Positions 2,567 through 19,790 of a DNA stretch of 64,000 nt are shown in pieces; position 1 is the stretch's first letter; every line of letters starts with the position of its first letter. The translations under genes and the position numbers were made by a program. The notes under the pieces were generated by a model that was not told where the DNA came from, did not search any database, and saw nothing but the letters and a program-made list of their open reading frames with translations. Source of the DNA: Betaproteobacteria bacterium (GTDB lineage Bacteria > Pseudomonadota > Gammaproteobacteria > Burkholderiales > Burkholderiaceae_D); the NCBI GenBank assembly GCA_025362735.1, contig JANYFL010000034.1, forward strand, positions 3,061 to 67,060, read 5' to 3'.

Positions 2567-2576
2567 AGCAGCGCAA

Positions 2577-3012: not shown

Positions 3013-3078
3013 CAGCTTATTGGTATCGCTTACCTGTATAGGTGAGTAATTGATATCCAGCCTCAGGAAATAAACATT

Positions 3079-3931: not shown

Positions 3932-6553
3932 ATGTCTCCAAGACGTTTTAGCACCACCATTCGCACACAATTTGAATTAAGGCCTGTCGCAAGCAGTCTG
4001 CAAGAGCTTTTTAACCTGCATCACAAATCGTTGATTGCCGGAGCAAGTATCATTGCTTCAATCCTTGCTGCGGGAGGGAGTCCATCGGCGATTGCTCAAA
4101 GTACTTCCAGGACAGAAGCCTCGGTCGATCTGGAAAAGGTCGTCGTCTCCTCGCGCAACCGTGAAGAATTCGCGCAGGATGTACCAATCCCGGTTTCAGT
4201 GATTAGTGGACAAACGCTGGATCGCGAAGGCGTTGTTGCAATTGAAGACCTCGTCAAGAAAGCTCCTGGCCTGGAAGCCACGACGCCCAATTCGCGCCGT
4301 ACCGGAATTTCAATTCGTGGCATCGGCAAGTCCGCTGGTAATGACGCGCTTGAAGCATCAATGGGTGTGATTGTTGACAATGTCTTTTTGTCACACCCGG
4401 GCATGAGCTATCAAGACTTTACCGATCTGGATCGGGTGGAAGTCCTGCGTGGGCCGCAAGGCACGCTGCTGGGCAAGAATACAACGATCGGGGCGATCAA
4501 CTATGTCAGCAAATTGCCCAGCTTTACGCCTGAAGCCTCGGCCAATGTTTTCTTCAGTTCAGAGGCATTGGATTCACGCAGCACACGTACGGTCAATGCT
4601 TCCATTTCGAATGCGATCGTCGATGACCTTTTGGCCTATCGCGTTTCATTTTTTGTCGACAAGCAGGATGGTGACATAGAGAACGTGAACGCAGAAGGTG
4701 GCCGGACGCATGAAAAAAATCGCTCGGGCGGGCGACTGCAATTTTTGCTGACGCCGAATAAGGATCTCTCACTTCGACTCAACGTGGATTCTTCAGAAAC
4801 CAATGAGCGCAGCAATACCAAACCGGTCATTCGCGTCTTGACCAATTTTGATGATGCGTCGAACTCATCGCGTGTGACAACGGCAGGGATTAACGGCATA
4901 CCGACGACGCAGGCCCAAGTTACAGCACAGAATGCGGGCAAGAACACCTATGTCAGCATTTTCAATCGCGCATATTTTGGTGGGTATAGTCCGATTGTGG
5001 GATCTTCGATAAAAGAAGATCTGAATCTCAATGTTCCTGTCGTCACCAAGAATCAAGGAGGCGTTGCCGAATTGAACTGGGACGTGGCCGGGCTGAGACT
5101 GACCTCGATCACAGGCGTGCGCACGTATGCATTTGATGCCAAAAATGATGGCGATCAGACCAAATTTGCAGTGAGCCGGAATGGTACGCGCGTCGATGCG
5201 CAGCAGGTGTCGCAGGAATTTCGTCTGACTTCACTCGTCAATGAGAAATTTGATTATCAGGTTGGTTTGTTCTATATGCATAGCTGGAATACGTCGAACA
5301 GTCGCACACTTTATGGCAACGATGGTGGTGCGTACAGTGCGAAAAACGGTGATTACAACGTTCTCTACAATACGGCGAGTGGCCGGCAGTTGCTCCAGTC
5401 ATCATTGAACAATGTCTATATTCAAAACGTTACAACACCTGACAACAAGAGTGCCGCAGCGTTTGGCCAGGTGAACTGGCACTGGACGGACGCCGCGACA
5501 CTGACATTGGGCCTGCGTGATACCTACGAAAAAAAGACCAGTACGGCGAGCAAACAAGCCTCTTTTCTTGATGGCAGTGCGCTCAACAATCTGACCACAC
5601 TGGGTAATAGTATCGGCGCCAGTCCGCTCGAAATTGCTGCTGCAAATAGTACGCGTAACGGTCAGGTTGGCACGACTTACACAAACCAGCAAGGAAAGCC
5701 GATCAATGATAGTGCGCTTGGCTGGCTGTTGAGCCCGAGCTACAAGTTGAATGAAAATGTTTTGCTCTATGCATCTGCAGCATCGGGCGAGAAATCTGGC
5801 TCTGTACAGTTTCTCAGTAACGGTACACCGAATGACGTTGCGCCGGAAAAAGTATTGGACTTTGAGACTGGTTTTAAAAGTCTGCTACTGGATCGTTCAC
5901 TCCTGCTCAATGTGAATTTTTATCAGACCACACTCAAAGATTATCAACAAACCACCAGTGTGTTTGATCCAGCAACGACAGCGCTGCGCAACGACGGTAC
6001 GTTGTACTACCAGTCCATTCTCGGCAACATTCCGAAGATTCGCGCACGCGGTGTCGAGGTCGATGGCACCTATATCGTCAATCGCAATCTGAGTCTGAGT
6101 TTTGGCGGCGCCCTCAACAATGCCAAGTATCTGGATTGGCATACTGCAACTTGCCCGAGTGAACTGAATGTCTCTTCATCGACCGTGACTTGTGACAACA
6201 CTGGCAAACAAGTAGTTGCTGCACCCAGGTTCATCGGTATAGCCGGTCTCGATTACAAGCTGGGATTGAGTGGAGGCTACGCTGGCCACCTGTGGCTCAA
6301 TAATGTCTATCGGACCAAGCAGAATTTTGATGCGACTCTCTCGCGTTATGGCATACAAAAAGCTTATTCCATAACGGATATTGGTCTGGGCTTGATCGCC
6401 CAGCAGGGAAAGTTCGAGATTGACCTGGTTGCCAAGAATGCGTTCGACAAGCAGTTCACGACCAGTATCAATGTCAGCAGCGATGGTCAGATTGCCTATG
6501 ACGGTATCGGCCCGCGTCGCTGGATTGGGCTGGTTTTACACGCAAGACTTTGA
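3932..6553 (+). CDS. TonB-dependent receptor (873 aa)
   Basis: A plug region (DLEKVVVSS..., VEVLRGPQGTLLGKNTTIGAINYV) is followed by a long beta-barrel-type sequence. Confidence 0.9.
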   Translation: MSPRRFSTTIRTQFELRPVASSLQELFNLHHKSLIAGASIIASILAAGGSPSAIAQSTSRTEASVDLEKVVVSSRNREEFAQDVPIPVSVISGQTLDREGVVAIEDLVKKAPGLEATTPNSRRTGISIRGIGKSAGNDALEASMGVIVDNVFLSHPGMSYQDFTDLDRVEVLRGPQGTLLGKNTTIGAINYVSKLPSFTPEASANVFFSSEALDSRSTRTVNASISNAIVDDLLAYRVSFFVDKQDGDIENVNAEGGRTHEKNRSGGRLQFLLTPNKDLSLRLNVDSSETNERSNTKPVIRVLTNFDDASNSSRVTTAGINGIPTTQAQVTAQNAGKNTYVSIFNRAYFGGYSPIVGSSIKEDLNLNVPVVTKNQGGVAELNWDVAGLRLTSITGVRTYAFDAKNDGDQTKFAVSRNGTRVDAQQVSQEFRLTSLVNEKFDYQVGLFYMHSWNTSNSRTLYGNDGGAYSAKNGDYNVLYNTASGRQLLQSSLNNVYIQNVTTPDNKSAAAFGQVNWHWTDAATLTLGLRDTYEKKTSTASKQASFLDGSALNNLTTLGNSIGASPLEIAAANSTRNGQVGTTYTNQQGKPINDSALGWLLSPSYKLNENVLLYASAASGEKSGSVQFLSNGTPNDVAPEKVLDFETGFKSLLLDRSLLLNVNFYQTTLKDYQQTTSVFDPATTALRNDGTLYYQSILGNIPKIRARGVEVDGTYIVNRNLSLSFGGALNNAKYLDWHTATCPSELNVSSSTVTCDNTGKQVVAAPRFIGIAGLDYKLGLSGGYAGHLWLNNVYRTKQNFDATLSRYGIQKAYSITDIGLGLIAQQGKFEIDLVAKNAFDKQFTTSINVSSDGQIAYDGIGPRRWIGLVLHARL

Positions 6554-6615
6554 TTCCCTCTCTCTTACCTAACTCAATTAATGCAGCAAGAACTCTTTAA
6601 CCAAAAGGATTACAA

Positions 6616-7146
6616 ATGATGAAACTAAAATCGAATATGGCCACTTGTGCGGCAGTTACTTTGTCCGCTTTATCCATGGCAGGATTCGCACTGGCACAAA
6701 CTCCAACCGCCGCGCAGACGCCAGTCCCTGCAGCGCGCGGTCCTGCGGTCAACCTTGCTCTCGAAGCCGCACAGACAGCGCTGGCTACGTGCCAGGCCAA
6801 CGGTTATAAAGTGGGCGTGAGTGTTGTGGACTCAGCTGGGGTTGTACGTGTTGCGTTGGCCTCGGACGGCGCCCCGCAACGTGCGGTCGAATCGGGTAAT
6901 GGCAAGGCCTTTACCGTTATCACCTACAAGACATCATCTGCTGAGGTTGCAAAGAAGGCTGAAAAAGATCCAGACCTGACCGCGAAGCTGAATGCGGATC
7001 CGAAGCAACGCGCGCGTGCAGGCGCTTTGCCACTCCTGGTTGCCGGTGAAGTGATTGGTGCCATCGGCGTTGGCGGTGCACCGGGTGGTGACAAGGATGA
7101 GGCTTGCGCTGCTGCTGGAATCGACAAGATCAAGGACAGACTTTGA
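6616..7146 (+). CDS. GlcG/HbpS-like (DUF336) heme-binding protein, exported
   Basis: It has a signal peptide (..SMAGFALAQ) and the conserved C-terminal GGxP motif region GALPLLVAGEVIGAIGVGGAPGGDKDEACA, which is typical of GlcG/HbpS. Confidence 0.75.
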   Translation: MMKLKSNMATCAAVTLSALSMAGFALAQTPTAAQTPVPAARGPAVNLALEAAQTALATCQANGYKVGVSVVDSAGVVRVALASDGAPQRAVESGNGKAFTVITYKTSSAEVAKKAEKDPDLTAKLNADPKQRARAGALPLLVAGEVIGAIGVGGAPGGDKDEACAAAGIDKIKDRL

Positions 7147-7163
7147 AATAAGTAGAGGGCAGT

Positions 7164-7196
7164 AAAAAGCCCGCTTAGTCAGCGGGCTTTTTTTAT
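7164..7196. terminator. Bidirectional rho-independent terminator between convergent genes
   Basis: The sequence is AAAAAGCCCGCT-TAGTC-AGCGGGCTTTTTTT: a GC-rich 8-bp stem flanked by an A-run and a T-run. Confidence 0.7.
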
Positions 7197-7240
7197 TTAA
7201 TCGAGGCGCGAGTGATGCTGATCTTATCGAGGGGCATCTT

Positions 7241-9346
7241 TTAAAACTGCGTACTCAATGTCATACGGAAAGTGCGTGGTTCGACCGGATGAAAGTGAAG
7301 ATCATCCACACCCGACAAGGACTCACCCGGTAAGCGGGAGGTGTAGTAATAGTCAATATCACTGGCCTTGCGGTTAAACAGGTTGAAGATATCGAGTGAA
7401 ACTTTCCAGTCCTGATTGATCTTATAACCTATCCGTGCATAGGCGAGAGAAGTCGATTTGGATCGCTGACTATTGTCTTCAATCAGTGGACGCGGGCCGA
7501 AGTAGCGCACCTGAAACTGCCCAAACCACGGGCCAAACTCGGTCAGGGTAACGCCCAAAGACGCAACCTTATTGACTGCACCCGGCACATAATTGCCGAC
7601 TGGATCGTCTTCAGTAAAGTGCGCCTGCGAAAGTGCCAGGTCGAAGTCGACCAGCAACCAGGGCCGCACAATATAGTGGTTGTTCCATTCAATCCCGGTG
7701 CGCTTGCTGGGGCGATTGGGTTCGGTTTCGGCCGCGTCCCCGGAGAAGACGAGTTCCGAATCCAGTTTGAGCTGCCACAGTGCCACCGAACTTTGCAGAC
7801 CGGGAATGATTTCGGTACGCGCACCGAATTCAAAACCTCTGGTCTTGACCAACAGGCTGGCTGGGTCAATCGGTGTCAGTGACCTGGGAGAAACCGTCGA
7901 AGTCACACCACGTGCATCGTTACTGTGAAAGCTCTCACCATAGTTGGCGAACAACTCGGTCTTCTTCCACGGCCCGAGAATCAGTGAGAGCTTGGGTGAG
8001 GTGATGCTGGCGTCCTTGTGGCCGGAATTGCCAGGGACATTACTTTCGACATCGACTTTCATCAGGTCGTGACGAATACCAGCAATACTGCGCAACCAGG
8101 GTTGCCACTGCAGGGTATTTTCGAAATAGAGACCGGCACTGGTTTGTCGCACGGGCCCTTCCTGGACGGTGTTGAGGCGTACACGATCAAGCGTGTCATA
8201 CAAGCCTAGTTGACTGATCCGATCCTGCCTTACCTGTATGCCAAACTTGTTGATCGTCTCCATCCCGGAAAGTTTGCCCATCCATGACTGGCTGGTGTCG
8301 AAACCAAACACACGGCGGCGCTCAGCCTGCTCAACCTGATCACCGTTGACCGGATCGTTCAGGAAGTAAGTGAAGTCGCCAAAAAGATTCAGGCGTGACT
8401 GGATCGCATACGCTTTCAATTCGAACACGCCATCTTCTTGAACATATTGCGTAGCGAAGGAAAGGCTGTAGCGGGCCGTATCGCCGCCATCGGTCGGGCT
8501 GATCGTGCCAAAACGATCAATCAGGCCCTGATCCACTGCTCTCTGCGGAATCTGGTCGGTTGCATTCCACTTGGCTTGATAGGCCATTGCTGTAATGGTT
8601 GTTGGGTGATCACTAGAGCCGAAGCTGTAGCGCAGCAAGCCGTTAAGTTTGTGAAAATGTTCGGGAACATCCCATGGCCCGTTGTTGTGAACAGCTTCCA
8701 GTCCATACAGCAGGTTACCGGTAGGCAAAACCGTAGAGTTCACCACCACAACGCGGCCATATTCGCCTTCACCCACGGTCAAAGAGGCAATGCCCTTGGG
8801 CAGAGTATTGGCAAAGTTGATCCGTGCCGAACCCGCAGAGGAAAAATCGCCCTCCCCAGCGTAATACGGGCCTTTCTTGTAGTCGATGCGGCTGACCACT
8901 TCGGGGATCATGAAATTGATGTCGCTATACCCAATGCCATGTGCATGAGAGGGCATGTTGACCGGCATGCCATCAATGAAAGTAGCGAAGTCAGTGCCAT
9001 GATCGAGATTGAAACCGCGCAGGAAATACTGGTTGGCTTTGCCGTCACCGCTGTGCTGGGTCACAATCAAGCCCGGCACGAATTCGAGAATTTCGCCCGC
9101 GCGTAATACGGGACGACTGGCAATCAACTGTGCCGTCACGCTGCCTTGGCTGGCAGCATCAGAAGTGCCGATTGCATTCAGATAATTTCCCTGAATTTCA
9201 ATTTTTTTAAGAGTCTCGAAAGACTGTGACGCGGTTGCATTTTTATTCTGTGCCAACAGTTGCGGTGTATCCGTCTCAGCAGCGCGAGCGCCAAAAAGGA
9301 TGAAACCCGTACCCAGCAATGTGGCCAGTTTGGTCAGTTGAAACAT
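7241..9346 (-). CDS. TonB-dependent receptor (701 aa)
   Basis: It has a signal peptide, plug motifs (EFVPGLIVTQHSGDGKANQYFLRGFNLDHGTDF) and a C-terminal ...RTFRMTLSTQF with a terminal Phe. Confidence 0.9.
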   Translation of the reverse strand: MFQLTKLATLLGTGFILFGARAAETDTPQLLAQNKNATASQSFETLKKIEIQGNYLNAIGTSDAASQGSVTAQLIASRPVLRAGEILEFVPGLIVTQHSGDGKANQYFLRGFNLDHGTDFATFIDGMPVNMPSHAHGIGYSDINFMIPEVVSRIDYKKGPYYAGEGDFSSAGSARINFANTLPKGIASLTVGEGEYGRVVVVNSTVLPTGNLLYGLEAVHNNGPWDVPEHFHKLNGLLRYSFGSSDHPTTITAMAYQAKWNATDQIPQRAVDQGLIDRFGTISPTDGGDTARYSLSFATQYVQEDGVFELKAYAIQSRLNLFGDFTYFLNDPVNGDQVEQAERRRVFGFDTSQSWMGKLSGMETINKFGIQVRQDRISQLGLYDTLDRVRLNTVQEGPVRQTSAGLYFENTLQWQPWLRSIAGIRHDLMKVDVESNVPGNSGHKDASITSPKLSLILGPWKKTELFANYGESFHSNDARGVTSTVSPRSLTPIDPASLLVKTRGFEFGARTEIIPGLQSSVALWQLKLDSELVFSGDAAETEPNRPSKRTGIEWNNHYIVRPWLLVDFDLALSQAHFTEDDPVGNYVPGAVNKVASLGVTLTEFGPWFGQFQVRYFGPRPLIEDNSQRSKSTSLAYARIGYKINQDWKVSLDIFNLFNRKASDIDYYYTSRLPGESLSGVDDLHFHPVEPRTFRMTLSTQF

Positions 9347-9490
9347 GGGTTTTCTTTATTTTTAATAACTCAAGCAGCCGCTTTAGAAAGCGCCACACTT
9401 TTATTGTTTGATAAAAGCTTGATATCAAAGCGATGAAACGCCACTAAAGCGAGCGGCGCGAACTGCAGCGCTGAATCAATGAATGGATAC

Positions 9491-10102
9491 TCACTTTTTA
9501 GCCGTTGCTTTTTTGTTTTCCGGATATACCGGGATTTTCTGGCCGGGATACCAGAACTGCAGGTGGCAGGCTTCGCAAACTCCATCAATATTCCCGCCTA
9601 CGGTCACGAGCGCTTCCGCATTTTTGGCATCAATCGCAGCAAGTGCTTGTGTCGTCACGTCATGCAAGGCATGCGCATGGGCGATAAATGCAGGTCTGTT
9701 GGCATCGATCAGTTTTTGGATTTCAATCGGTTCCAGCTCGTCTTTCACCTCTGATTTCGTACCAGGGGGGGCAACCTGGCGGCCCTCAATTAACAGCAGA
9801 TTGGTCGCTTCAATCAGCGTAAGGGCATGGCGCCGGACCGCTTTCCACTCTTCATCCGTATGGGGCTGATTTTCGACTAGACCCTTCTTGCTGGTTTCTG
9901 TACTGACTGCATTCCAGACGCCATCGGCGGAAGGATCGATCACTGCATCCATCAGTTCCTTGATGCTGGCCGTTGGTCTGAACGGTGTTTCTTGAGCCGG
10001 GTTTGCAGCGGTGGTGGCAGACGTTTTCTGACCGCAACCACTAACACTGGAAAGAATGAGCAAGACGATCCCGGCTGATAAAGCCGATGTTCTGATTTTC
10101 AT
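9491..10102 (-). CDS. Lipoprotein with a class II (cytochrome c'-like) heme c domain
   Basis: It has a lipobox (LSSVSGC) and a predicted helical body. A single CxxCH (CEACH) lies ~20 aa from the C-terminus, the class II cytochrome c arrangement. Confidence 0.6.
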   Translation of the reverse strand: MKIRTSALSAGIVLLILSSVSGCGQKTSATTAANPAQETPFRPTASIKELMDAVIDPSADGVWNAVSTETSKKGLVENQPHTDEEWKAVRRHALTLIEATNLLLIEGRQVAPPGTKSEVKDELEPIEIQKLIDANRPAFIAHAHALHDVTTQALAAIDAKNAEALVTVGGNIDGVCEACHLQFWYPGQKIPVYPENKKATAKK

Positions 10103-10120
10103 GTTGATTCCGATACTGAT

Positions 10121-10597
10121 TTAAACGACAAAGCCGATGGCACGGCCTGCCAGTCCGACGCCAAACCACAGGCTGAGCGAGAGCAGGGCTGTGGTTCTGG
10201 CAAGAACGGGGTTTGGCTTTTCCAGCGTGGTCACTTTTTTCAGTAAAGTGAACTGCAAGGTAACTGCGAGAGCCAGCAGGGTCATTTTTGGCCAGAACGC
10301 GCTATTCATGTCGTATCTCAACAAACCGGAAAGAAAAATGGTCAGTCCGGTGGACACTGCCACGAACAAGCCAGTCAATACAAAAGGTCTGGCCGACTGC
10401 GCTACTTCCGGCACGCTTTGTCGCCGCAAACCTACGCCCAGCAGCCTCAGATTAATGAGCAATACGCCGGTCAACAAAAGGAGCAGGCCGAGGACATGAA
10501 ACACTTCGACGATTTCGATGACACGGTGATCGGACTCACGCAGAAAATAGAGGGGCGGCGTTTGAGACAGCCAGTGAAATAGTTCAGCTTTGGTCAT
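10121..10597 (-). CDS. 4-TM integral membrane protein of unknown function (DUF6644-like, paralog B)
   Basis: It has four hydrophobic segments. The TM1 motif VEVFHVLGLLLLLTGVLLINLRLLG is shared with the adjacent gene. The start was chosen at internal ATG 10597 (MTKAELFHWL...). Confidence 0.55.
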   Translation of the reverse strand: MTKAELFHWLSQTPPLYFLRESDHRVIEIVEVFHVLGLLLLLTGVLLINLRLLGVGLRRQSVPEVAQSARPFVLTGLFVAVSTGLTIFLSGLLRYDMNSAFWPKMTLLALAVTLQFTLLKKVTTLEKPNPVLARTTALLSLSLWFGVGLAGRAIGFVV

Positions 10598-10626
10598 GGC
10601 AATTGGTTTCAGCTCAAGAGTAGTGA

Positions 10627-11124
10627 TTAAAAGTGAGGGTAATAGGCGTAGAGACGTCCCAGCACAATGGTGGTCGTCCAGAAGCTCAACGATACCCATG
10701 CGGCGGCTCGAACGCCGATGGGGAAAGTTTCACGCTGACCCCATTCCGCCACACGCCGCCCCAGACGAAATTCGAACAGCAGGGCGTTGATACCGGCCAC
10801 CACAATCAGCAATGCTTTCAGACGAAAGATGTTGCTCTCGTAGAGTGTGGCTGCGACCGGCCAGAACAGCAGGCCACCGGAGATGAAGGTCAGAATAAAA
10901 CCAGCGACCAGCCAGGGCCGTAACTGATCCAGAATATCAGCCACCGGTACGCCCCGCTGATAGACCCCAATCAGCCGCAGATCGGTCAGCAAGACAAGAC
11001 CAACCGAGAGCGCCAGCCCCAGCAGATGGATTCCCTCAACAAATGGATACAGGTAGCGTGATCCCAGAAAGGCTTCACCGAGTTCGGTGTTTTCCAGCCA
11101 TTGGCATAGTTCGAACAAAGTCAT
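10627..11124 (-). CDS. 4-TM integral membrane protein of unknown function (DUF6644-like, paralog A)
   Basis: MTLFELCQWLENTELG...VEGIHLLGLALSVGLVLLTDLRLIG is followed by further hydrophobic segments. It is a paralog of 10121..10597. Confidence 0.6.
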   Translation of the reverse strand: MTLFELCQWLENTELGEAFLGSRYLYPFVEGIHLLGLALSVGLVLLTDLRLIGVYQRGVPVADILDQLRPWLVAGFILTFISGGLLFWPVAATLYESNIFRLKALLIVVAGINALLFEFRLGRRVAEWGQRETFPIGVRAAAWVSLSFWTTTIVLGRLYAYYPHF

Positions 11125-11144
11125 AATTTATCCCTCGCTGTGAT

Positions 11145-14003
11145 TTAAAGTTTGCCGCTGAAGACAAAGCCAAACCAACGGGGTAGACCCGGGGTCGTAC
11201 TGTTCCAGCTTTGTGCAACGTTGTAATTGGTATTGAGCAAGTTCTTTACGAGGAAGTTAAAGTCGTAAAGCCGGTCGCGGCGACCCAGTCCGATCGAAAA
11301 ATCAACCAGACCATAGGCATTGACCCAGGCATAACTGGACTGGGCGGCATCCGAGTTGAAACGGCTCTTGTAGTTGTAGTTCAGATTGGTATGGAAGACC
11401 TTGTCGTTCAGTACCGGCAGGCTGTAATCGACCGACAGATTGGCGGTGAACCTCGGTGCGTTCGCCAGGGTCTGGCCCTTGGCGTCATAGAACCTGACCG
11501 GCAGATTGCCCTTTTCGACGGGATTAGACAGCAGGATCGAATCCTTGTAATAGGCATCGTTAAAGGAGCTGGCCAGTCGCACCGTGGTATGTTGGATGCC
11601 AGTATACGAAGCATCGATTTCCAGACCGCGGATTTCCACCAGGGGCGCGTTGCCGGTAATGCTGGTGTAAGTCGGGATGCCCGTGTTGGCCGTCAGGACA
11701 GGGTCAAGGATGTTGACCGATTGCTGGAAGTTTTTCAGTCGATCCAGAAAGACATCGGCATTCAGGGTCAAGGTATTGTTGAACTGCGAGGTCTTCAAAC
11801 CCAGCTCGAATGCGTTGGATGTTTCCGGCAAGGTCAAGAAGGAACGGGGTACGCCATTGAGTGTTCCGCTGATCTGCGAGATGCCTGCCTTGGCCCCATG
11901 CTGCCATGATCCATAGGTCGTCAGGCTGTCATTGAGCTTGTAGCTCAGACTGATATTCCCGGTGGTCAGGTTGCCCTGATAGGGTTGCGCCGCGGTGGTA
12001 TTGAACAGGCCGTTATAGGCTTGTGCGGCGCGAATGGCCTGGGCCTGTGTGACCTGGGTTTTTTGCGCGGCAGTCAGGCCGGCATAGGCCGCGCCCGGGA
12101 TAGCGGTAATCGGCGCGCCAAAATATTGATTCGCCAATCGATCTGCCGCGCTTAACTGAGTAGAATTATTGGCGGCCTGCAGACCCGCCAGATTGGCAGC
12201 CGAGGTAAAGCCGCCGTATGCAGCCGGGTTGAGCAGTGAACCGAAGCCGCTGTCTGAAATCAGTTTGTTGACCGAGGTACGCCGATCTTCATTGGTGTAG
12301 CGCAGACCAGTGGTCAGGGTTAGCGGCTCGCTCAGATGCCAATCGGCCTGACCGTAAACCGCGGCACTTTTGTTGTCGGTGTAGGTTGTGCTGGTCGCAT
12401 AAACGTGATCAAGCGAGTCTTTCAGCAATGCCCGACCGCTACCAAAATCGCTGGTGTTCGGATCAAGCGGGTTATATTGCGCCGTCGTCGCAAACCAGGC
12501 CCCCGCATCGGAACCGTAAAAGGTACGCGTATTCGCATCCGACTTGGTATGAATCCAGAACAGACCGCCGGTGTAATCGACGAAGCCACCTGGATTGGAA
12601 GTCAGACGCAACTCTTGACTGACCTGCTTGTAATGCACAAACAAACCTGCATCGCGCGTGATATCGAATGGCGTACCGTCGTCATTGGCCGCTTGAAAGA
12701 AATTGTTCTTGAAAGCGGTAATCGAGGTCAAAAGAAAATTAGGCAGCTTCCAGTTCAATTGAGCCGAGGCACCCTTGTTGCCGTTCAGGATCCCGCGGTT
12801 ATCGTCTTCATTGACGGGATCACTGTAGTACCTTGAAAGGCTGTAACTGGAGACCGCGGTGAAATAGCGCCGCTGCAAAGCGACCTGAGCGCCCGAGGTC
12901 AGCGGGATGATGCTGCCGTCGGCATAAGTCAAAGGTTGTGCAAATCGGAACGTAAGGCCGTTGACCCATTCGATGCCCTTGGGTTTGAAGTCTGCGCTGA
13001 ACAGGGCACTGAAATCCTTGTTCGGCGTCAGCAGGAACTGGACGCGTCCATAGCTGCGGTCGGTATTGGTATAGCTGGTGCGATCCTCAATGGGCTTGAA
13101 CTGGTTCATGTAGAAGCCTTCTTGCTGGTTTCTGTAGAACGTGCCGCGCCATGCCAATACATCATCCACTACCGCCCCGCCGAATGCTGCCTGCGTAATC
13201 AGGGCATTTTGCTGCCCGAAAGTGATCGAGGCATTGGCTTCCGGTGTGAATGTTGGCTTGTTGGTCGTAATGTTGATTGTGCCCATGCTGGTGTTCTTGC
13301 CACCAGTGGAACCTTGCGGGCCACGGGTTACGTCAATGGTGGCGACATCGATATAGTCGGAACCACTGGCGAGTGCAACGTATGCATAGGGCACGCCATC
13401 CACATTCACGCCCAGACTCGGGTCGATCTGTTCCGTACTGCCAGCGCTGACGCCGCGAATCGACAGGCTGCCAGTCTTGGGATTGCCATAGTTCCACTGG
13501 ACGTTGCCAATGCGTTTGAGAATATCCGTTACGTTGAGGGCTCCGGTCTTTTCCAGTTCGGCACCGGTGACGACCGAAATCGATTTGGGGACATCCTGAA
13601 GTTGAACCAGCGGGTTCGGCGCTCGAATGACGACCTTCTCCAGACTCTGTTGCGCCTCTGCTTGCGAAGCAGTGGCAGCCTGATTGGTGGTGCTGGTGGT
13701 TTGCGATCCGGCCACAGCATTCGCATTGGTCGTGGTTGTCTGTATTCCAGTCTGTCCGCTTTGCTGGGCATTGATCTGTAGCTGCAGCTTGTCCACGATT
13801 TGTTTCAGGCGCGCGTTTTCGCTTTGCAAATCTGCAAAGGCCTTGTCATCTGCCGCATGGACATTCATCGCGGTACCAATTGCGGTCGCGGCAAACAAGG
13901 CGGCCATCACACTGACCGACAATTTGCTGCGGCGACCGATCACGGCAAGAGGCTGTTGCAGCATGTTCAAGCTGGTTGAATTCATACTGGTTCGATTAAT
14001 CAT
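11145..14003 (-). CDS. TonB-dependent receptor (952 aa) with an unusual N-terminal coiled-coil/low-complexity extension
   Basis: It has plug motifs (ISVVTGAELEK..., DVTRGPQGSTGGKNTSMGTINI), a long barrel and a C-terminal ...RWFGFVFSGKL. Confidence 0.9.
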   Translation of the reverse strand: MINRTSMNSTSLNMLQQPLAVIGRRSKLSVSVMAALFAATAIGTAMNVHAADDKAFADLQSENARLKQIVDKLQLQINAQQSGQTGIQTTTTNANAVAGSQTTSTTNQAATASQAEAQQSLEKVVIRAPNPLVQLQDVPKSISVVTGAELEKTGALNVTDILKRIGNVQWNYGNPKTGSLSIRGVSAGSTEQIDPSLGVNVDGVPYAYVALASGSDYIDVATIDVTRGPQGSTGGKNTSMGTINITTNKPTFTPEANASITFGQQNALITQAAFGGAVVDDVLAWRGTFYRNQQEGFYMNQFKPIEDRTSYTNTDRSYGRVQFLLTPNKDFSALFSADFKPKGIEWVNGLTFRFAQPLTYADGSIIPLTSGAQVALQRRYFTAVSSYSLSRYYSDPVNEDDNRGILNGNKGASAQLNWKLPNFLLTSITAFKNNFFQAANDDGTPFDITRDAGLFVHYKQVSQELRLTSNPGGFVDYTGGLFWIHTKSDANTRTFYGSDAGAWFATTAQYNPLDPNTSDFGSGRALLKDSLDHVYATSTTYTDNKSAAVYGQADWHLSEPLTLTTGLRYTNEDRRTSVNKLISDSGFGSLLNPAAYGGFTSAANLAGLQAANNSTQLSAADRLANQYFGAPITAIPGAAYAGLTAAQKTQVTQAQAIRAAQAYNGLFNTTAAQPYQGNLTTGNISLSYKLNDSLTTYGSWQHGAKAGISQISGTLNGVPRSFLTLPETSNAFELGLKTSQFNNTLTLNADVFLDRLKNFQQSVNILDPVLTANTGIPTYTSITGNAPLVEIRGLEIDASYTGIQHTTVRLASSFNDAYYKDSILLSNPVEKGNLPVRFYDAKGQTLANAPRFTANLSVDYSLPVLNDKVFHTNLNYNYKSRFNSDAAQSSYAWVNAYGLVDFSIGLGRRDRLYDFNFLVKNLLNTNYNVAQSWNSTTPGLPRWFGFVFSGKL

Positions 14004-14142
14004 TACTTCCCCTCAATCTAGAAAATTGAAAATTTCGATGCATTACTTCTGAACAATGCAGCAGCGCCAGGTCCATCGGCGTGGCTATACCGCAGTCGGC
14101 GAAAATGGTTGCGCGACACTTGTTTCGAGATCAAACATAGAG

Positions 14143-14170
14143 AAGGGTGGCCTCTTAAAAGCCACCCTTG
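14143..14170 (-). terminator. Hairpin downstream of gene 14199..15170 (possible terminator or attenuator)
   Basis: The sequence is AAGGGTGGC-CTCTTAAAA-GCCACCCTT. On the minus strand it is followed by a moderately U-rich stretch. Confidence 0.35.
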
Positions 14171-14198
14171 TACTCATTACGTCATGGATGACTCAGGA

Positions 14199-15170
14199 CT
14201 ATTTGGCAGCACGGCCAAAGCCGCCGTTGTTCTCGACGCAGATCCGTTCATAAGCCTCGTGAAGAAGTGGCTTGCCCGGATTGTTCGCCACGGCCACTTC
14301 GTAGTGCCAGCCGCCCGGCTTGTCTGCTTCGGTGTAACGGCGAGCAGGAATGGTGGCGGTCCAGGGTCGCGTATAAACGGGCGGGTCGTCAAAGGTGGCG
14401 ACGTAGTTGTAGCGCTTGTTGTCGTTATCGAAGATGTAGCGCTCGACGACGTGAACATTGTCGCTGGCAAATGCGCCTTCACGGCCAAAAAGGGCCTTCG
14501 CATTGTTATTGCTCACATCGACGACCAGGGTATTGCCTTCCCAGTGACCGCGTGAATCGGCATTCCATAATTTGATGTTTTCCGGAAGATGCGGCTTGCC
14601 ATCCAGATGAATGACCCGGCTGCCCGAGCCGAAGATGAATAAGACATAGTTTGGAAACTGACGAATCTCGTAACCGTGCCAGTAGAACGACTTCGGTACA
14701 CCAGCTGGTGCGCAACGGGCCAGCGGCTCGATATGTTCCGGCTTGCTGGGTTTGTTGAAGTTGGCTTTGAAGTCCTGCTGCGCAGCCAGAGCCCAAGGCT
14801 GGAAAGGAATTTCACCGCTGGCTGGATCGCTCACGCGGCTCGGTGCGCGTTCTTCACGCGGCCCCAATTTAATTGGCCGTGCAGGATCGTTGGTGCCGCC
14901 CTGTGGATCAGTGAAATTGTTGTGGTTGGCGATGGTGTTGGACCAGAAGCCTGATACATCCGGCTGTCCGTCCGGCAGATACTTGCCAGTCCATTTTCCG
15001 GAAAGAATGACAGGTACCGTTTTGGATATGGAGATACCACCACCTTGCGGTGCAGCTTGCTGTCTTTGCTGCCCTTGTTGGGCAAAACTTGCAGCGCTGG
15101 GGGCAAGCACTAGCGCGATAAGCAGCAGACCTGCGCTGTGAAACTTGTGCTGACTAAATTTGCTTTTCAT
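14199..15170 (-). CDS. Secreted protein of unknown function (323 aa), paralog of 15258..16187
   Basis: It has a signal peptide (LLLIALVLAPSAASFAQQ). It shares blocks with its neighbour: GQPDVSGFW, RVIHLDGKPH, DSRGHWEGNTLVVDVSN, VHVVERY and DDPPVYTRPWT. Confidence 0.7.
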   Translation of the reverse strand: MKSKFSQHKFHSAGLLLIALVLAPSAASFAQQGQQRQQAAPQGGGISISKTVPVILSGKWTGKYLPDGQPDVSGFWSNTIANHNNFTDPQGGTNDPARPIKLGPREERAPSRVSDPASGEIPFQPWALAAQQDFKANFNKPSKPEHIEPLARCAPAGVPKSFYWHGYEIRQFPNYVLFIFGSGSRVIHLDGKPHLPENIKLWNADSRGHWEGNTLVVDVSNNNAKALFGREGAFASDNVHVVERYIFDNDNKRYNYVATFDDPPVYTRPWTATIPARRYTEADKPGGWHYEVAVANNPGKPLLHEAYERICVENNGGFGRAAK

Positions 15171-15257
15171 AAAATCCTCACCTGCTTGAATATCCGATGT
15201 GTTGCGTGATGGTTGGCTGCATGAAAATCATTCCGGCAGCCGCTGAGAAATGACCAC

Positions 15258-16187
15258 TCAAGGCTTGGGCGGGTAGTACTGGTCATAGTCCAGCGTGAAG
15301 CCGTAGTTCTCGATCAACTGGAAGTTCTTTTCGCGATGACGATAAAGAATCACGCTGAGGGTCCAGGGGTGGCTGTAGACCTGAGGGTCATCAAGCGTGG
15401 CCTTGTATTCGATCGTATTGGCGTCGAGGAATTTCCAGCGTTCGACGACATGCAGGGCATCGCTGTGGAAATTACCGGCCCGATCCAGCCAGGTCTCGTC
15501 ATTGAAATTGGTGACGTCGACGACCAGCGTATCGCCTTCCCAATGTCCGCGCGAGTCACCGAGCCATAACTGGTTCGTCCCCTCCTGTTCCGGATCAGCA
15601 TGCAAAGTGCCATTGGTGTGGATGGTGCGTACCGACTGGCCGAACTCGAACAGCAGTGTCAGGTCACGGGGGCGCTGAAAAATCTGGAATGGCTCCGGAT
15701 AGTAGATGCCGCGCGGGGTGCCGAGGGTGTACCACTTCAAACGCGGATCAGCGGTCAGCCGTGCTTCAAAGTTTTTCTTTTTCTGCTCCAGCGCCTTGGG
15801 CAAATAGGGAATGAAATTCCCGTCAATGACACCGGCACTCGGCGGCGCATCTTTGCGAGTCGAATGGGGTTCGAGGTCATAGTCAGCAGCACTGGTGGTC
15901 TGCCAGATACCGGAGAAATCCGGTTTGCCATTCAGGCGCGGAATCTTGGCTTCGACTTTGCTTTCCGTCGTGGCCGTGGCCGCGCTTGCGCTCAAGAAGG
16001 CGCAGGGTGCCGTAACCAATAAGGTCGTCACAATGAGGCGTAAGCCTAGGTGCCAAAAACGTGATGGAGTTGACGGGCTCGCGTACGCCCCGTCTCCACT
16101 GAAGGATGGGGTTGTTGTGATGAGTGTGGTGTTCAAGGAATTCTCTCTTTGCGTGCATGAGCATGCCGGGGCGGATCTCCCCGGCAT
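15258..16187 (-). CDS. Secreted protein of unknown function (up to 309 aa), paralog of 14199..15170
   Basis: It carries the blocks GKPDFSGIW, RTIHTNGTLH, DSRGHWEGDTLVVDVTN, LHVVERW and DDPQVYSHPWT. The true start is probably downstream of ATG 16187, because a GC hairpin occupies 16164-16184 and the hydrophobic signal segment begins near LGLRLIVTTLLV. Confidence 0.65.
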   Translation of the reverse strand: MPGRSAPACSCTQRENSLNTTLITTTPSFSGDGAYASPSTPSRFWHLGLRLIVTTLLVTAPCAFLSASAATATTESKVEAKIPRLNGKPDFSGIWQTTSAADYDLEPHSTRKDAPPSAGVIDGNFIPYLPKALEQKKKNFEARLTADPRLKWYTLGTPRGIYYPEPFQIFQRPRDLTLLFEFGQSVRTIHTNGTLHADPEQEGTNQLWLGDSRGHWEGDTLVVDVTNFNDETWLDRAGNFHSDALHVVERWKFLDANTIEYKATLDDPQVYSHPWTLSVILYRHREKNFQLIENYGFTLDYDQYYPPKP

Positions 16188-16235
16188 TTTTTGTGAAGAA
16201 AGTGCCGTTGCCGGCCTGGGGTCAAACCCTAACGA

Positions 16236-16667
16236 TTACTGCGTCCGCGTTGCCGGTGCGGCTGTGGCATCCGGCGCGCCGCCCGTACTGAAACTGCGGC
16301 CATCGGCGAGGGTCACACCCGATGCATATCCATAGCTTTCACCGCTCTTGGAATAGAAGCCTTTAATAGTGACTTCGGTACCTGGTACCAAGTCGGTCTT
16401 CGATATCCCTCTTTGCGCCAGCGCATTGGGCGCAGCAAATTCAAAGCCCCAGTTGGCGACCTTCCCATCAGGCCCTTTGACATCGGCATACAGCCAGCTA
16501 TGCGGATTGACCCATTTGGCCTTGGTGACGGTGCCCTTGAGTTCAAAGGGCTTCTCACCGTCATACTCCGCTGAAAAGGCATGGTGGGCCATTGCTTGGG
16601 AAGCTATTCCTATAAGCCCCCCAATCAATGTCATGACCGCCAACATATTTTTTATCTTGATGTTCAT
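16236..16667 (-). CDS. DUF6152-like exported protein
   Basis: The signal peptide ends ...ASQAMA and is followed by HHAFSAEYD..., then TVTKAKWVNPHSWLYADVKGPDGKVANWGFEFAAPNALAQRG, which matches the DUF6152 pattern as I recall it. An alternative start lies at 16685. Confidence 0.6.
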   Translation of the reverse strand: MNIKIKNMLAVMTLIGGLIGIASQAMAHHAFSAEYDGEKPFELKGTVTKAKWVNPHSWLYADVKGPDGKVANWGFEFAAPNALAQRGISKTDLVPGTEVTIKGFYSKSGESYGYASGVTLADGRSFSTGGAPDATAAPATRTQ

Positions 16668-16762
16668 AACAAATTCTTCTTTCATTCCAGAGGATTTAAC
16701 CCTGCATTTCGCAATCGATCAGTCATTTGTAGTCAACGCAGGGTTCGGAAATCCGGCTTAGG

Positions 16763-17251
16763 TTATTTGCTCGCGTCAGCAGTCTTCGGCAGAGGGGGAG
16801 AGATTTTTGTCAACGTACCGCCTTCTGATTCATAGCCTTGAGCACCTATGGCTCCTGCGACCTTGAAGCCTTTACTGGCCAAGAGATCAGCCGCACCGCC
16901 AGCGCGACCCGCATGATTGGAGACCGTAACGATCAGCCTGTCCTTGGGAATAAAGGCCAAATTCTTTTCGAGGTCTTTCGCCTGAATGCTCAGGAAAACA
17001 GGGAAGCCTCCAATAGAGGTCAGCTCGTCGGGGCGACGCACATCAATCAAAATCAGTTGTTCCGGTCGAGCAAGCAACGTATCCAACTCAGCACGCGTAA
17101 GAATCTTGGCGTTCGATTTCTTGGCTGCCTGGGTGGGTGCATTCGGAGTGGTGTTCTGAGTCGCCTGCTGTGCAAACGTAATAGAAGACGCAAAGGAGAC
17201 CGTCAGCGTCAGGCAAAGCATCATTAATTTGATCAACTTTTTCATGGTCAT
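16763..17251 (-). CDS. Periplasmic single-domain rhodanese-like protein lacking the catalytic Cys
   Basis: It has a signal peptide (MTMKKLIKLMMLCLTLTVSFASSITFAQQ). The rhodanese fold pattern LILIDVRRPDE...IVTVSNHAGRAGGAADLLASKGFKV is present, with Ser at the position of the active-site Cys. An alternative start lies at 17245. Confidence 0.7.
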   Translation of the reverse strand: MTMKKLIKLMMLCLTLTVSFASSITFAQQATQNTTPNAPTQAAKKSNAKILTRAELDTLLARPEQLILIDVRRPDELTSIGGFPVFLSIQAKDLEKNLAFIPKDRLIVTVSNHAGRAGGAADLLASKGFKVAGAIGAQGYESEGGTLTKISPPLPKTADASK

Positions 17252-17665
17252 TTCAGTTAGGTGTTGGAAAACAATAAAGGCACAGAGACCATCACTGCCC
17301 ACCAGCGAACTTTTCCGTAGACCAACTCGCCCCACTACTCACTTCAGTTCGTTAGTCAGCAGAGACTGGCCTCTGTGTAGTGAAGAGATTGCAGCGAATG
17401 TGCCAGTGATGTTTTTTGCAAGAACAAATAGCGGACGAATGGATGCAAATAGATGATTGCAAAAGATATTTAACACTGATGAAGGAATTGAATTCATTGT
17501 TCGTACTGACAATATGGACGAATCGGTCAACTCAAGTTGCTGCGTATCGAGCAGGCTGAGCAGCAGCTTTGTTGATTGTTGAACAGTGACTAAGCATGAA
17601 CAACACTGATTGAAGAGGACTTTTAGCAATCAAGCTCGGTTCTGGTTTGACATAAAATTCGCCTC

Positions 17666-18925
17666 ATGAACACGAACCTGACTTTTCCCGGACCTTCCAC
17701 CACCACACCAGCACTGAAAGGAATGTTGTCTGTGAGCGACGCTCTGGAAAAGATTCTGAAGGCGGTTCAGCCGCTTGCTCAAAGCGAGGCTGTTGAGACA
17801 CTGAATGCATTGAATCGTGTACTGGCTGCGCTTGTACTGGCTGAGATTGATGTGCCACCAATGCACAACAGCGCGATGGACGGTTACGCTGTGCGCGTGG
17901 CGGATTGCTCTAACGGCTCTGCACGTTTGCCCGTGACACAACGCATTCCAGCAGGGCAGGTCGGCATGCCGCTTCAGCCGGGAACTGCGGCTCGGATTTT
18001 TACGGGTGCAATGATTCCTGATGGTGCCGATGCGGTCGTGATGCAGGAACGCTGCACAGCAGAGGGAGACCAAATCGTCATCAACCATGTCCCGGCTCCG
18101 AGTGAAAACATCCGTCGGCGCGGCGAAGACATTGCCGCCGGAACGCAGATTCTTGCAGGCGGTACGCGCTTGCGTGCGCAGGAGCTCGGACTTGCTGCCT
18201 CGGTCGGTATTGCCCGTTTGAACGTCACGCGTCGTATTCGCGTTGCCGTCTTTTTTACTGGAGACGAATTGGCCATGCCGGGTGAGGTGGCTCCAGATCA
18301 ACTCAAGCCCGGTGCGATTTATAACTCCAACCGCTTCGTGTTGCGCGGTTTGCTTGAAAACCTAGGCTGCGAAATTACCGACTTCGGCATCGTGCCCGAT
18401 TCGCTCGAAGCCACACGTGCAACCTTGCGCCAAGCGGCTGAAGGATACGATTGCATCGTCACCAGTGGCGGTGTGTCGGTCGGTGAAGAAGATCACGTCA
18501 AGGCTGCTGTCGAGGCCGAAGGCACACTGAATCTTTGGCAGATTGCGATGAAGCCGGGTAAACCCCTAGCCTTTGGCAAAGTGGGGTCGGCGTTATTTTT
18601 TGGTTTGCCGGGTAACCCCGTTTCAAGCTTTGTCACTTTCCTACTGTTCGTACGTCCGGCTTTGCTGCGCTTGCAGGGCGTTGTAAATATTGTGCCGCGT
18701 CACTATCTGATGCGTGCAGACTTTGATTGGCCCAAGGCGGACAAACGTCAGGAATATTTGCGGGTTCAAGTTAATGCCCAAGCTGGGTTGGATCTGTATC
18801 CAAGTCAGGGTTCAGCGGTGCTCAGTTCAGCCGTATGGGGCGATGGGCTTGTCGAGAACCCGGGTGGTCAAGTGATTGCACAAGGTAATCACGTTCGCTT
18901 TCTGCCATTTGCGGAGCTAATGTGA
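17666..18925 (+). CDS. moeA: Molybdopterin molybdenumtransferase MoeA
   Basis: Typical MoeA sequence is present: PPMHNSAMDGYAV, TGAMIPDGADAVV, SGGVSVGEEDHVK and FGLPGNPVSSFV. Confidence 0.9.
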   Translation: MNTNLTFPGPSTTTPALKGMLSVSDALEKILKAVQPLAQSEAVETLNALNRVLAALVLAEIDVPPMHNSAMDGYAVRVADCSNGSARLPVTQRIPAGQVGMPLQPGTAARIFTGAMIPDGADAVVMQERCTAEGDQIVINHVPAPSENIRRRGEDIAAGTQILAGGTRLRAQELGLAASVGIARLNVTRRIRVAVFFTGDELAMPGEVAPDQLKPGAIYNSNRFVLRGLLENLGCEITDFGIVPDSLEATRATLRQAAEGYDCIVTSGGVSVGEEDHVKAAVEAEGTLNLWQIAMKPGKPLAFGKVGSALFFGLPGNPVSSFVTFLLFVRPALLRLQGVVNIVPRHYLMRADFDWPKADKRQEYLRVQVNAQAGLDLYPSQGSAVLSSAVWGDGLVENPGGQVIAQGNHVRFLPFAELM

Positions 18926-19179
18926 AACTGAAGTTACTTTACTTCGCCGGCTTGCGCGAAAAACTGGGTGTTAGCGAGGAGGAAGTCATTGTGCCGGATT
19001 CAGTACATACGGTTGCTGATGCACGAAACTGGCTTTGCGCACGCGGAGATATTTGGGCTGATGCTTTGGCTCCGGAGCGCAATCTGCGCGCGGCGGTCCA
19101 GCAACGGATGAGCGTAGTAAATACAGTTTTGGAAGAGGGTAATGAAGTGGCTTTTTTCCCACCGGTAACAGGAGGCTGA
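18922..19179 (+). CDS. moaD: Molybdopterin synthase sulfur-carrier subunit MoaD
   Basis: It is 85 aa and ends ...FFPPVTGG (C-terminal Gly-Gly). Its GTG start overlaps the moeA stop by 4 nt. Confidence 0.85.
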   Translation: MKLKLLYFAGLREKLGVSEEEVIVPDSVHTVADARNWLCARGDIWADALAPERNLRAAVQQRMSVVNTVLEEGNEVAFFPPVTGG

Positions 19180-19180
19180 G

Positions 19181-19645
19181 TTGGCCGCTTTTGTACGGGT
19201 GCAGACTGCCGACTTTGAAATCGGTGCTGAGATCGCGGCATTGCGTGCCGGTAAACCCAAGGTCGGCGCTGTAGCGTCATTTATCGGCACTGTGCGCGAT
19301 TTGAATGACGGTAATGATGTCGGCATGCTGACGCTAGAACATTATCCAGGCATGACGGAAACGGCGCTTGAAGAAATTTCTGAAAACGCTGCAACGCGCT
19401 GGAAATTAATCGACAGCTTGGTGGTTCATCGTTACGGCACCCTATATCCGCAAGACCAGATCGTGCTGGTTGTTGTAACCTCGATGCATCGTGAGGACGC
19501 CTTACAAGCCTGCGCATTTATCATGGACTATTTGAAGACACAGGCTCCGTTCTGGAAAAAAGAAACGACATCACAAGGGACGCGTTGGGTCGAAGCGCGT
19601 GACGGTGACGCAGAAGCCTTGTCACGCTGGAAGGTGACTGAATGA
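19181..19645 (+). CDS. moaE: Molybdopterin synthase catalytic subunit MoaE
   Basis: The sequence GAVASFIGTVRD...LEHYPGMTE...APFWKKE is typical of MoaE. Its TTG start lies 1 nt after the moaD stop. Confidence 0.9.
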   Translation: MAAFVRVQTADFEIGAEIAALRAGKPKVGAVASFIGTVRDLNDGNDVGMLTLEHYPGMTETALEEISENAATRWKLIDSLVVHRYGTLYPQDQIVLVVVTSMHREDALQACAFIMDYLKTQAPFWKKETTSQGTRWVEARDGDAEALSRWKVTE

Positions 19646-19666
19646 GAAAAACTTTAAGAAGCCAAT

Positions 19667-19753
19667 CGTCATTCCTGCGAAGGCAGGAATCCAGCGACGT
19701 GAATGTCGGGCAAAAGTCACTGGGTTCCTGCCTTCGCAGGAACGACGAATTCG
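19667..19753. repeat. Pair of inverted REP-like palindromic elements
   Basis: Copy 1 is CGTCATTCCTGCGAAGGCAGGAATCCAGCG. Copy 2, read on the opposite strand, is CGTCGTTCCTGCGAAGGCAGGAACCCAGTG. Each contains a TTCCTGC-GAAG-GCAGGAA hairpin. Translation gives the classic spurious VPAFAGTT peptide (track ORF 19703..20188). Confidence 0.6.
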
Positions 19754-19790
19754 GACTTAATCAGCCGACGATGCAAATTAGAGGAACCCA

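Follow-up and report, generated by a model that had tools for sequence, protein, structure and literature searches.

The locus studied here raises the question of what nine neighbouring genes do together, two of which encode TonB-dependent receptors (TBDRs) and the others uncharacterised exported and membrane proteins. The genes lie on the minus strand at 7241-17251 of a 64,000-nucleotide stretch of DNA, hereafter the window, taken from contig JANYFL010000034.1 (positions 3,061 to 67,060) of Betaproteobacteria bacterium (GCA_025362735.1; GTDB Burkholderiaceae_D). A preliminary description of the block had suggested TonB-dependent import coupled to periplasmic or inner-membrane redox processing and had placed its emphasis on a metal substrate. 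We lean towards reading positions 1-17,600 of the window as a sulfur-limitation island, i.e. a regulon for TonB-dependent sulfur scavenging of which the nine genes form the largest block, because of sigma-54 promoters with their enhancers, SfnR-type activators, and CysB-family, sbp and encapsulin-desulfurase neighbours.

All nine consecutive minus-strand open reading frames (ORFs) are present as described. In transcription order they encode a secreted rhodanese-like protein with the loop SNHAGRAG, in which Ser replaces the catalytic Cys (16763-17251; sub-threshold match to Pfam Rhodanese); a secreted DUF6152 protein with a predicted OB fold and an NPH motif, whose predicted mature form begins with an invariant His-His (16236-16685; PF19649, E 3e-29); P310a, a paralogue of P310b; P310b itself, a secreted protein with a beta-rich core from a large family for which there is no Pfam model (14199-15170); TBDR1, a 952-residue receptor with a low-complexity N-terminal extension (11145-14003); DUF6644a, a protein with four transmembrane (TM) helices and a conserved S.Y..P..E..H in TM1 (10627-11124; PF20349, E 3e-11); DUF6644b, a four-TM inner-membrane protein with an invariant TM1 His (10121-10597; PF20349, E 2e-10); a lipoprotein related to class II (c'-type) cytochromes c, carrying lipobox Cys23, Met51 and a C-terminal CEACH (9491-10102); and TBDR2 (7241-9346). 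The start of P310a is ambiguous, the gene caller placing it at a GTG at 16031 (15258-16031, 257 residues) and the longest ORF at an ATG at 16187 (15258-16187, 309 residues). As had been proposed, no product other than the receptors belongs to a characterised family according to Pfam, NCBIfam and sequence and profile searches of the PDB; P310a, P310b and the lipoprotein were assigned to no Pfam or NCBIfam family at all. From TBDR1 through DUF6644a and DUF6644b to the cytochrome gene, successive genes are 20, 29 and 18 nt apart, in agreement with the preliminary description, which took such spacing to suggest one transcript. A terminator-like hairpin of 12 pairs (14143-14169, minus strand) and a 195-nt gap split P310b from TBDR1, so that a single transcript is not assured. 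A further gap of 144 nt precedes TBDR2.

Gene order was compared across genomes by scanning a single genome of each species with an alignment built from P310 homologues, which gave 594 confirmed places; 79 loci were kept and every ORF in them was profiled with the window proteins. The order DUF6152-P310a-P310b was identical in Alpha-, Beta- and Gammaproteobacteria and in Acidobacteriota. The ordered core was carried by Sphingomonas, Sphingobium and Porphyrobacter among the Alphaproteobacteria, by Methylobacillus, Methylophilus, Duganella and Derxia among the Betaproteobacteria, and by Steroidobacteraceae, Cellvibrionaceae and Methylococcales among the Gammaproteobacteria. The cluster occurs in methylotrophs, Oxalobacteraceae, sphingomonads, Steroidobacteraceae and Acidobacteriota. 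Of the 29 loci that are closest to P310b, 27 have DUF6152, 19 have a member of DUF6644, 14 have the cytochrome lipoprotein, 14 have the rhodanese-like gene and about two thirds have a receptor; as many loci are cut by contig ends, all of these counts are lower bounds. TBDR2 follows the cytochrome gene in Methylobacter too and adjoins the core in Duganella. Plasmid records gave only two weak matches to P310b. Since gene order is kept across phyla, synteny, which the preliminary description had named as a test of its proposal, is not lost in related genomes and the cluster is a conserved unit. It is therefore very improbable that the nine genes are unrelated neighbours in a receptor-rich region. 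The hairpin and 195-nt gap between P310b and TBDR1, the 144-nt gap before TBDR2 and the lack of accessory genes in many distant loci would suit such an origin; the conserved order and the promoters and enhancers common to the genes argue against it, as does the behaviour of the accessory genes, whose position and strand vary between loci and which yet remain inside the locus.

The regulatory signals, which the preliminary description had overlooked, are sigma-54 promoters and enhancers in front of tonB, the gene of a third receptor (TBDR3) and the nine-gene cluster. The TonB gene (3079-3711, plus strand; Pfam TonB_C, E 1e-11) is preceded by a sigma-54 promoter motif TGGCAC-N5-CTGC at 2997-3011 (plus strand), 82 nt before its start, and by an enhancer-like inverted repeat TTGTTG-N6-CAGCAG at 2888-2905 (plus strand). 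In front of TBDR3 (3932-6553, plus strand), the motif TGGCAT-N5-CTGC lies at 3871-3885, 61 nt before the start, with two enhancer-like inverted repeats at 3717 and 3748, all on the plus strand. The nine-gene cluster has the motif TGGCAC-N5-CTGC at 17391-17405 on the minus strand, 154 nt before the rhodanese-like start codon, and two enhancer-like repeats, TTGCTG-N6-GAGCAG and TTGTTG-N6-GAACAG, at 17537-17586, 130-165 nt upstream of the promoter. These three sites are among only four matches to TGGCA[CT]-N5-[TC]TGC in the 64-kb window, against a mean of 0.55 in shuffled sequence. TBDR3 is followed by a gene for a secreted HbpS-like protein (6616-7146, plus strand; PF03928), and a hairpin with a T-run at 7164-7192, scored on the plus strand, separates this gene from the convergent TBDR2 gene; it probably acts as a terminator and may do so on both strands. 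The coordinates 7241-17251 are right for the nine genes, but TonB, TBDR3 and the HbpS-like protein, which lie outside them, also belong, and the functional unit reaches out to 1-7192 on one side and to 17600 on the other. The fourth sigma-54-like motif (42039-42053) lies inside a histone-deacetylase-family gene, and a perfect inverted repeat, CTGCTGCGTGGCAGCAG, is found at 31443-31459 between a glutathione-reductase-like gene and isocitrate lyase; both are probably due to chance or unrelated.

The same signals recur in the related loci. Over all sequence examined, 23 of 49 sigma-54 matches fell within zones 20-350 nt upstream of cluster-family genes, which make up 4.2% of that sequence (binomial P 4e-19). 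The cluster promoters have the inverted repeat CTG(C/T)TG-N6-CA(G/A)CAG about 100-190 nt upstream, and at least two enhancer half-sites were present at 19 of 26 such promoters as compared with 5% of random windows. In seven loci a sensor-less sigma-54 activator adjoins the cluster. Along almost their entire sequence they share 51-64% identity with the regulators found beside msuE-msuD-msuC in P. aeruginosa and beside msuE-sfnG-sfnB in Burkholderia, whereas a non-orthologous activator taken as contrast reached 41-49% in the AAA+ domain only; judged by this similarity, the cluster-adjacent activators are members of the SfnR family. The msuE promoters of these P. aeruginosa and Burkholderia loci carry the same repeat 100-190 nt upstream of a sigma-54 motif. 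SfnR is not known to have a sensor domain and, to go by the titles of the primary papers, is reportedly CysB-regulated, sigma-54 dependent and required for dimethylsulfone utilisation.

The genes beside the cluster point in the same direction. At the start of the window lie a family 2A encapsulin shell gene, its 5' end cut by the window start (1-690, plus strand; NF041162, 394 bits against a cut-off of 380, model positions 86-295), and the gene for its cargo cysteine desulfurase (635-2566, plus strand; NF041166, 901 bits against a cut-off of 800). The desulfurase has a SufS-like domain, with Pfam Aminotran_5 at residues 264-633, and a long N-terminal region that the SufS and Aminotran_5 models leave uncovered. 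The pair lies 4.7 kb from the nine-gene cluster. Six genomes besides this one, including that of the acidobacterium Granulicella rosea, likewise have a family 2A encapsulin no more than 10 kb away from the DUF6152-P310 core, and its cysteine desulfurase cargo is seen where the contig permits. Family 2A encapsulin operons are rare, with about 1,460 catalogued, are induced about 10-fold by sulfur limitation and serve elemental sulfur storage (PMC10836720, PMC8346489, PMC8049743). CysB-family regulators adjoin the cluster in five loci, mostly of sphingomonads, and a stand-alone sbp gene for the sulfate-binding protein in three (497-561 bits against a cut-off of 288). In locus L086 (3056-5853), selU, encoding tRNA 2-selenouridine synthase, and sbp stand directly upstream of a receptor, the SfnR-like gene and the DUF6152 block.

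Several features of the proteins bear on whether a metal is the substrate. DUF6152 matched PF19649 with 101.6 bits (cut-off 27). Its predicted structure (predicted local distance difference test score, pLDDT, 76) matched OB-fold domains at probability 1.0, and neither sequence nor profile search of the PDB revealed a relative. Across 56 sequences, AHH.F.AE.D, with the predicted signal-peptide cleavage between the Ala and the first His, and NPH.W are invariant, from which it is reasonable to infer a metal site that uses the free N-terminal His. The DUF6644 proteins scored 44.1 and 41.6 bits against PF20349 (cut-off 27) and share 31% identity, their subfamilies aligning at E 1e-36 in hhalign. 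Each subfamily has one invariant TM1 His, that of DUF6644a standing within S.Y..P..E..H, and by the positive-inside rule the TM1 end that bears the conserved Glu and His would face the periplasm. The metal- and redox-type signatures pointed out earlier (the CEACH motif, the TM1 His and the N-terminal His-His) are conserved across homologues and hence not due to chance. With them one could construct a system that acquires Cu, Fe, haem or another cation, in which the receptors would take up the metal or a chelate of it, DUF6152 would be a periplasmic OB-fold metallochaperone, the cytochrome would reduce the metal and the DUF6644 pair would carry it across the inner membrane; this comes close to the view of the preliminary description. 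The invariant N-terminal His-His, NPH, Glu and Asp of DUF6152 would suit such a scheme, and so would, in DUF6644, the conserved Glu and His towards that end of TM1 which is predicted to be periplasmic, as would the HbpS-like family, which recurs in or beside the cluster in four loci, a PepSY_TM neighbour in one locus and the best, though weak, NCBIfam matches of the receptors, which are to haem and siderophore receptor families.

Regulation and context speak otherwise. There was no Fur box, as the preliminary description had noted: matches in the cluster intergenic regions had at least 9 mismatches in 19 positions. A riboswitch scan of window positions 1-20000 gave nothing credible, and no metal-responsive regulator adjoined any locus, the regulators found there being of the SfnR and CysB types. 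The sbp and encapsulin-desulfurase neighbours also argue against a metal, and metal acquisition would leave P310a and P310b without a role. An analogy to CopC/CopD was tried and dropped, since hhalign gave a probability of 0.1-0.2% for DUF6644 against the E. coli CopD protein YebZ, and DUF6152 has a predicted OB fold, from which the CopC fold differs. We consider metal acquisition unlikely. Overall, the conserved unit, the uncharacterised families and the missing Fur box of the preliminary description were borne out, while its emphasis on a metal has no regulatory or contextual backing and it missed the regulation and the neighbours that point to sulfur limitation.

P310a and P310b are 36% identical (E 1e-32) and belong to a large family, with 4,449 matches in a collection at 90% identity, every named one a 'hypothetical protein' and none with a Pfam domain, and 11,310 clusters at 50% identity (E <= 1e-3). 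Sequence and profile searches of the PDB found no solved relative. In an AlphaFold model of P310b, a beta core of eight strands is predicted with confidence, but the mean pLDDT is 66; Foldseek returned nothing below E 0.08 and only a faint lipocalin- or avidin-type resemblance, and we therefore claim no fold for it. Both subfamilies share GDSRG.WEG.TLVVD, and the P310a subfamily has four conserved His (D...H, G..HP, GNFHS, LHVVER) that are absent from the P310b subfamily. The P310a of the window lacks both Cys, probably a disulfide, that are conserved in most P310a and P310b proteins. The family is much expanded in Acidobacteriota, with up to seven paralogues per 20 kb, and the acidobacterial core often directly adjoins a pyrroloquinoline quinone (PQQ)-dependent dehydrogenase, which in several loci carries a CxxCH motif. 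At L083, where a cytochrome lipoprotein was not found, the gene right after the DUF6644 pair encodes a quinohaemoprotein dehydrogenase. Such neighbours fit a core that exchanges electrons with c-type cytochromes and lend indirect support to a redox role.

The same acidobacterial loci invite the view that the cluster serves to break down or oxidise organic compounds in the periplasm, such as aromatic or humic-derived ones, and is directed at carbon, with its sulfur neighbours secondary. A Tat-exported Amidohydro_2 protein, a YghX/dienelactone-hydrolase-like protein, a P450, a member of the PF00903 glyoxalase/dioxygenase superfamily and an FAD-monooxygenase, encoded beside the core in some loci, would fit this view, and 8 of 21 P310b members gave weak matches to Pfam Dioxygenase_C (best E 0.078). 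These matches had suggested P310b to be an intradiol dioxygenase, but no dioxygenase was among the Foldseek matches and the assignment was abandoned. Moreover, the catabolic-type neighbours differ between loci, the recurrent ones being regulators, sbp, cysB and encapsulin genes, and the cluster is linked to no downstream pathway in the cytoplasm, so a carbon-directed module appears rather improbable. As to the proteins themselves, the Amidohydro_2 gene lies inside the cluster in Duganella and Povalibacter (L004 13454-14587, L081 13550-14707, L010 6456-8522), the Duganella fentianensis copy (L004) having a Tat-type signal, and in Massilia a YghX/dienelactone-hydrolase-like gene takes its place. 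A link to lanthanides and PQQ, suggested by the many methylotrophs and the PQQ-dehydrogenase neighbours, was set aside as a side observation because the regulators are of the sulfur type and no xoxF or mxaF context was noticed among the annotated neighbours.

The lipoprotein and the rhodanese-like protein complete the periplasmic set. The lipobox Cys, Met51 and CExCH...WYP are invariant in the lipoprotein, and CE.CH is kept in the 15 homologues examined from related loci, 12 of which were re-aligned. Its profile matched about 30 cytochromes c' in the PDB (E 1e-4 to 1e-3) with CxxCH aligned and nothing else significant; against PF01322 (Cytochrom_C_2) it scored 16.7 bits (cut-off 26.5), and 12 of 12 homologues were likewise below threshold, the best at E 1e-5. 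Like class II cytochromes c (c', c-556), it carries CxxCH close to the C-terminus, and its profile resembles theirs in the last two helices; unlike them, it is about 60 residues longer, lipidated, below the Pfam cut-off and endowed with an invariant Met in the first conserved helix, which suggests a low-spin, electron-transfer type. The earlier assignment as a cytochrome hence stands, at the fringe of the family. The rhodanese-like protein scored 19.7 bits against Pfam Rhodanese (cut-off 22.2) and two homologues about 21 bits. SNHAxRAG is present in 18 of 18 cluster-linked members, and the mature protein of the window has no Cys; the replacement of the catalytic Cys by Ser was read from an alignment by eye to the active-site loop of E. 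coli GlpE.

In all three receptors the plug and barrel domains (PF07715, PF00593) were matched, and none of them reached the cut-off of a substrate-specific NCBIfam model. TBDR1 and TBDR2 are not close relatives. The nearest solved structures, YncD/PqqU, FyuA and CirA, gave weak matches only, no close solved relative of TBDR3 being found, and an attempt to read the substrate from them was dropped. The receptors also bear on another explanation, in which the cluster protects or repairs the envelope, being antioxidant or detoxifying and induced along with the sulfur-starvation response, and the receptors are separate passengers. Its membrane proteins and cytochrome could hand quinol electrons to a periplasmic partner, in which they resemble the methionine-sulfoxide repair system MsrPQ. 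Antioxidant defences are indeed co-induced by sulfur starvation in P. aeruginosa (PMC12581299). The receptors, however, are embedded in the operon with gaps of 20 nt, they and TonB share the promoter and enhancer type of the cluster, and about two thirds of the close loci, and acidobacterial ones too, have a receptor along with the core. We regard envelope protection as improbable.

Import through TonB followed by redox processing in the periplasm or inner membrane, as first suggested, is still the most economical reading of the parts, and the sulfur-limitation reading would give it the following course. Upon sulfur scarcity, an SfnR-family sigma-54 activator would bind the CTG(C/T)TG-N6-CA(G/A)CAG enhancers; its gene would lie outside the window, but one of this kind adjoins the cluster in seven related loci, and such activators are under CysB control in other bacteria. 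The activator would fire three promoters, that of TonB, that of TBDR3 and the HbpS-like protein, and that of the block headed by the rhodanese-like gene and comprising DUF6152, P310a, P310b, TBDR1, DUF6644a, DUF6644b, the cytochrome lipoprotein and possibly TBDR2. TonB-energised receptors would then carry a scarce sulfur-containing substrate into the periplasm, where a complex of DUF6152 with P310a/P310b, probably a metalloprotein, may bind and transform it. The DUF6644 pair and the cytochrome lipoprotein could link this chemistry to the quinone pool, giving or taking electrons, and the Ser-type rhodanese-like protein could bind a sulfur oxyanion or an intermediate. Inorganic sulfur so released would enter by general routes such as Sbp/CysTWA, and the neighbouring encapsulin and cysteine desulfurase would handle intracellular sulfur storage. 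A more specific proposal, which we put forward tentatively and hold to be possible rather than probable, is that DUF6152-P310a-P310b is a new periplasmic metalloenzyme, wired to the quinone pool through DUF6644a/b, as a new membrane protein of two subunits, and the lipidated cytochrome, that frees assimilable sulfur from the TonB-imported substrate; candidate substrates would be macromolecular or insoluble sulfur, for example organosulfur polymers or elemental sulfur.

A number of observations weigh against the sulfur-limitation reading. We infer the sulfur control from neighbours and the regulator family. Only about half of the close loci have sulfur-linked neighbours, which are rare in the much larger acidobacterial expansion, so that the general chemistry of the family may not be sulfur-specific. 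The enhancer copies of the window (2888, 3717, 3748, 17537, 17569) are degenerate and fit a relaxed pattern only, and no SfnR-like gene was found in the 64-kb window. None of the loci contained a known desulfurising enzyme (sulfatase, TauD/AtsK, SsuD, SfnG, MsuD), no msu, sfn or ssu gene was found in the window or the cluster loci, and no dedicated inner-membrane importer was recognisable. The P310b model is of moderate confidence (pLDDT 66) and has no significant fold match, and the conserved His clusters would be equally in keeping with a metal that is the substrate and with one that serves as cofactor.

Two other groups of genes in the window may be mentioned. Divergent from the cluster lie moeA, a ThiS-family gene (probably moaD) and moaE for molybdopterin synthesis (17666-19645), which are not conserved neighbours in related loci. 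About 12 kb from the cluster, a peroxiredoxin-glutaredoxin fusion followed by a pyridine-nucleotide disulfide oxidoreductase (28964-31330) forms a thiol-redox pair.

In soil and fresh water, most of the sulfur occurs in forms other than free sulfate, and the known bacterial sulfur-scavenging systems (Ssu, Tau, Msu/Sfn, Ats) use cytoplasmic enzymes supplied by ATP-binding cassette (ABC) importers. If our reading is true, the island adds a route that is located in the envelope, dependent on TonB and probably linked to redox chemistry, and the SfnR regulon reaches outer-membrane transport; if the metalloenzyme proposal is true as well, this new route of sulfur acquisition is co-inherited with an encapsulin sulfur store. 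The sulfur-storing desulfurase encapsulin gains a recurrent genomic partner. Several carriers are in culture, such as Methylobacillus glycogenes JCM 2850, Duganella fentianensis FT93W, Massilia sp. CF038 and Derxia lacustris HL-12, which makes the hypothesis directly testable.

Among known systems, the SfnR regulon (sfnFG, msuEDC) of Pseudomonas and Burkholderia is similar in its control, with a related sensor-less activator in seven related loci and CTG(C/T)TG-N6-CA(G/A)CAG 100-190 nt upstream of a -24/-12 promoter. Its targets differ, being cytoplasmic flavin-dependent monooxygenases for dimethylsulfone and methanesulfonate, none of which was found in the cluster loci; there, TonB, receptors and exported or membrane proteins without a characterised function would be controlled instead. 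The sulfur-regulated ats/sft locus of Pseudomonas offers an earlier example of a sulfur source taken up by way of TonB, as proposed for the cluster. This sulfur-scavenging locus, atsACBR-sftR-atsK-sftP, contains the TBDR SftP (PMC3596284). In contrast to it, the nine proteins include, by Pfam and NCBIfam, no arylsulfatase, AtsK-type dioxygenase, ABC transporter or SftR-type regulator, and the periplasmic proteins of the two loci are unrelated. The family 2A encapsulin operon, physically linked to the cluster in the window and six other genomes, forms a cytoplasmic compartment, unlike the cluster; its usual partners are serine acetyltransferase and a cytoplasmic rhodanese with a catalytic Cys, whereas the rhodanese-like protein of the cluster is secreted and lacks that Cys. 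In FoxB/PepSY-type siderophore reductases and MsrPQ, small haem-type membrane proteins, encoded next to a receptor or periplasmic enzyme, transfer electrons between the quinone pool and a periplasmic partner, as the DUF6644 pair may do; DUF6644 has no sequence relationship to them and is a four-TM protein with a single invariant His per subunit. CusF and CopC/CopD, like the cluster, pair a small periplasmic His-ligand protein with a small multi-TM membrane protein, but DUF6152 is without a Met-rich site and no homology to them was detected. A literature search on DUF6152, DUF6644, DUF2214 and SfnR together with TonB-dependent transport returned nothing relevant. The kind of system, a nutrient-limitation regulon with TonB-dependent import, is already known; its periplasmic and membrane machinery is drawn here from three uncharacterised families (P310, DUF6152, DUF6644), and there is a sizeable chance that its chemistry is new.

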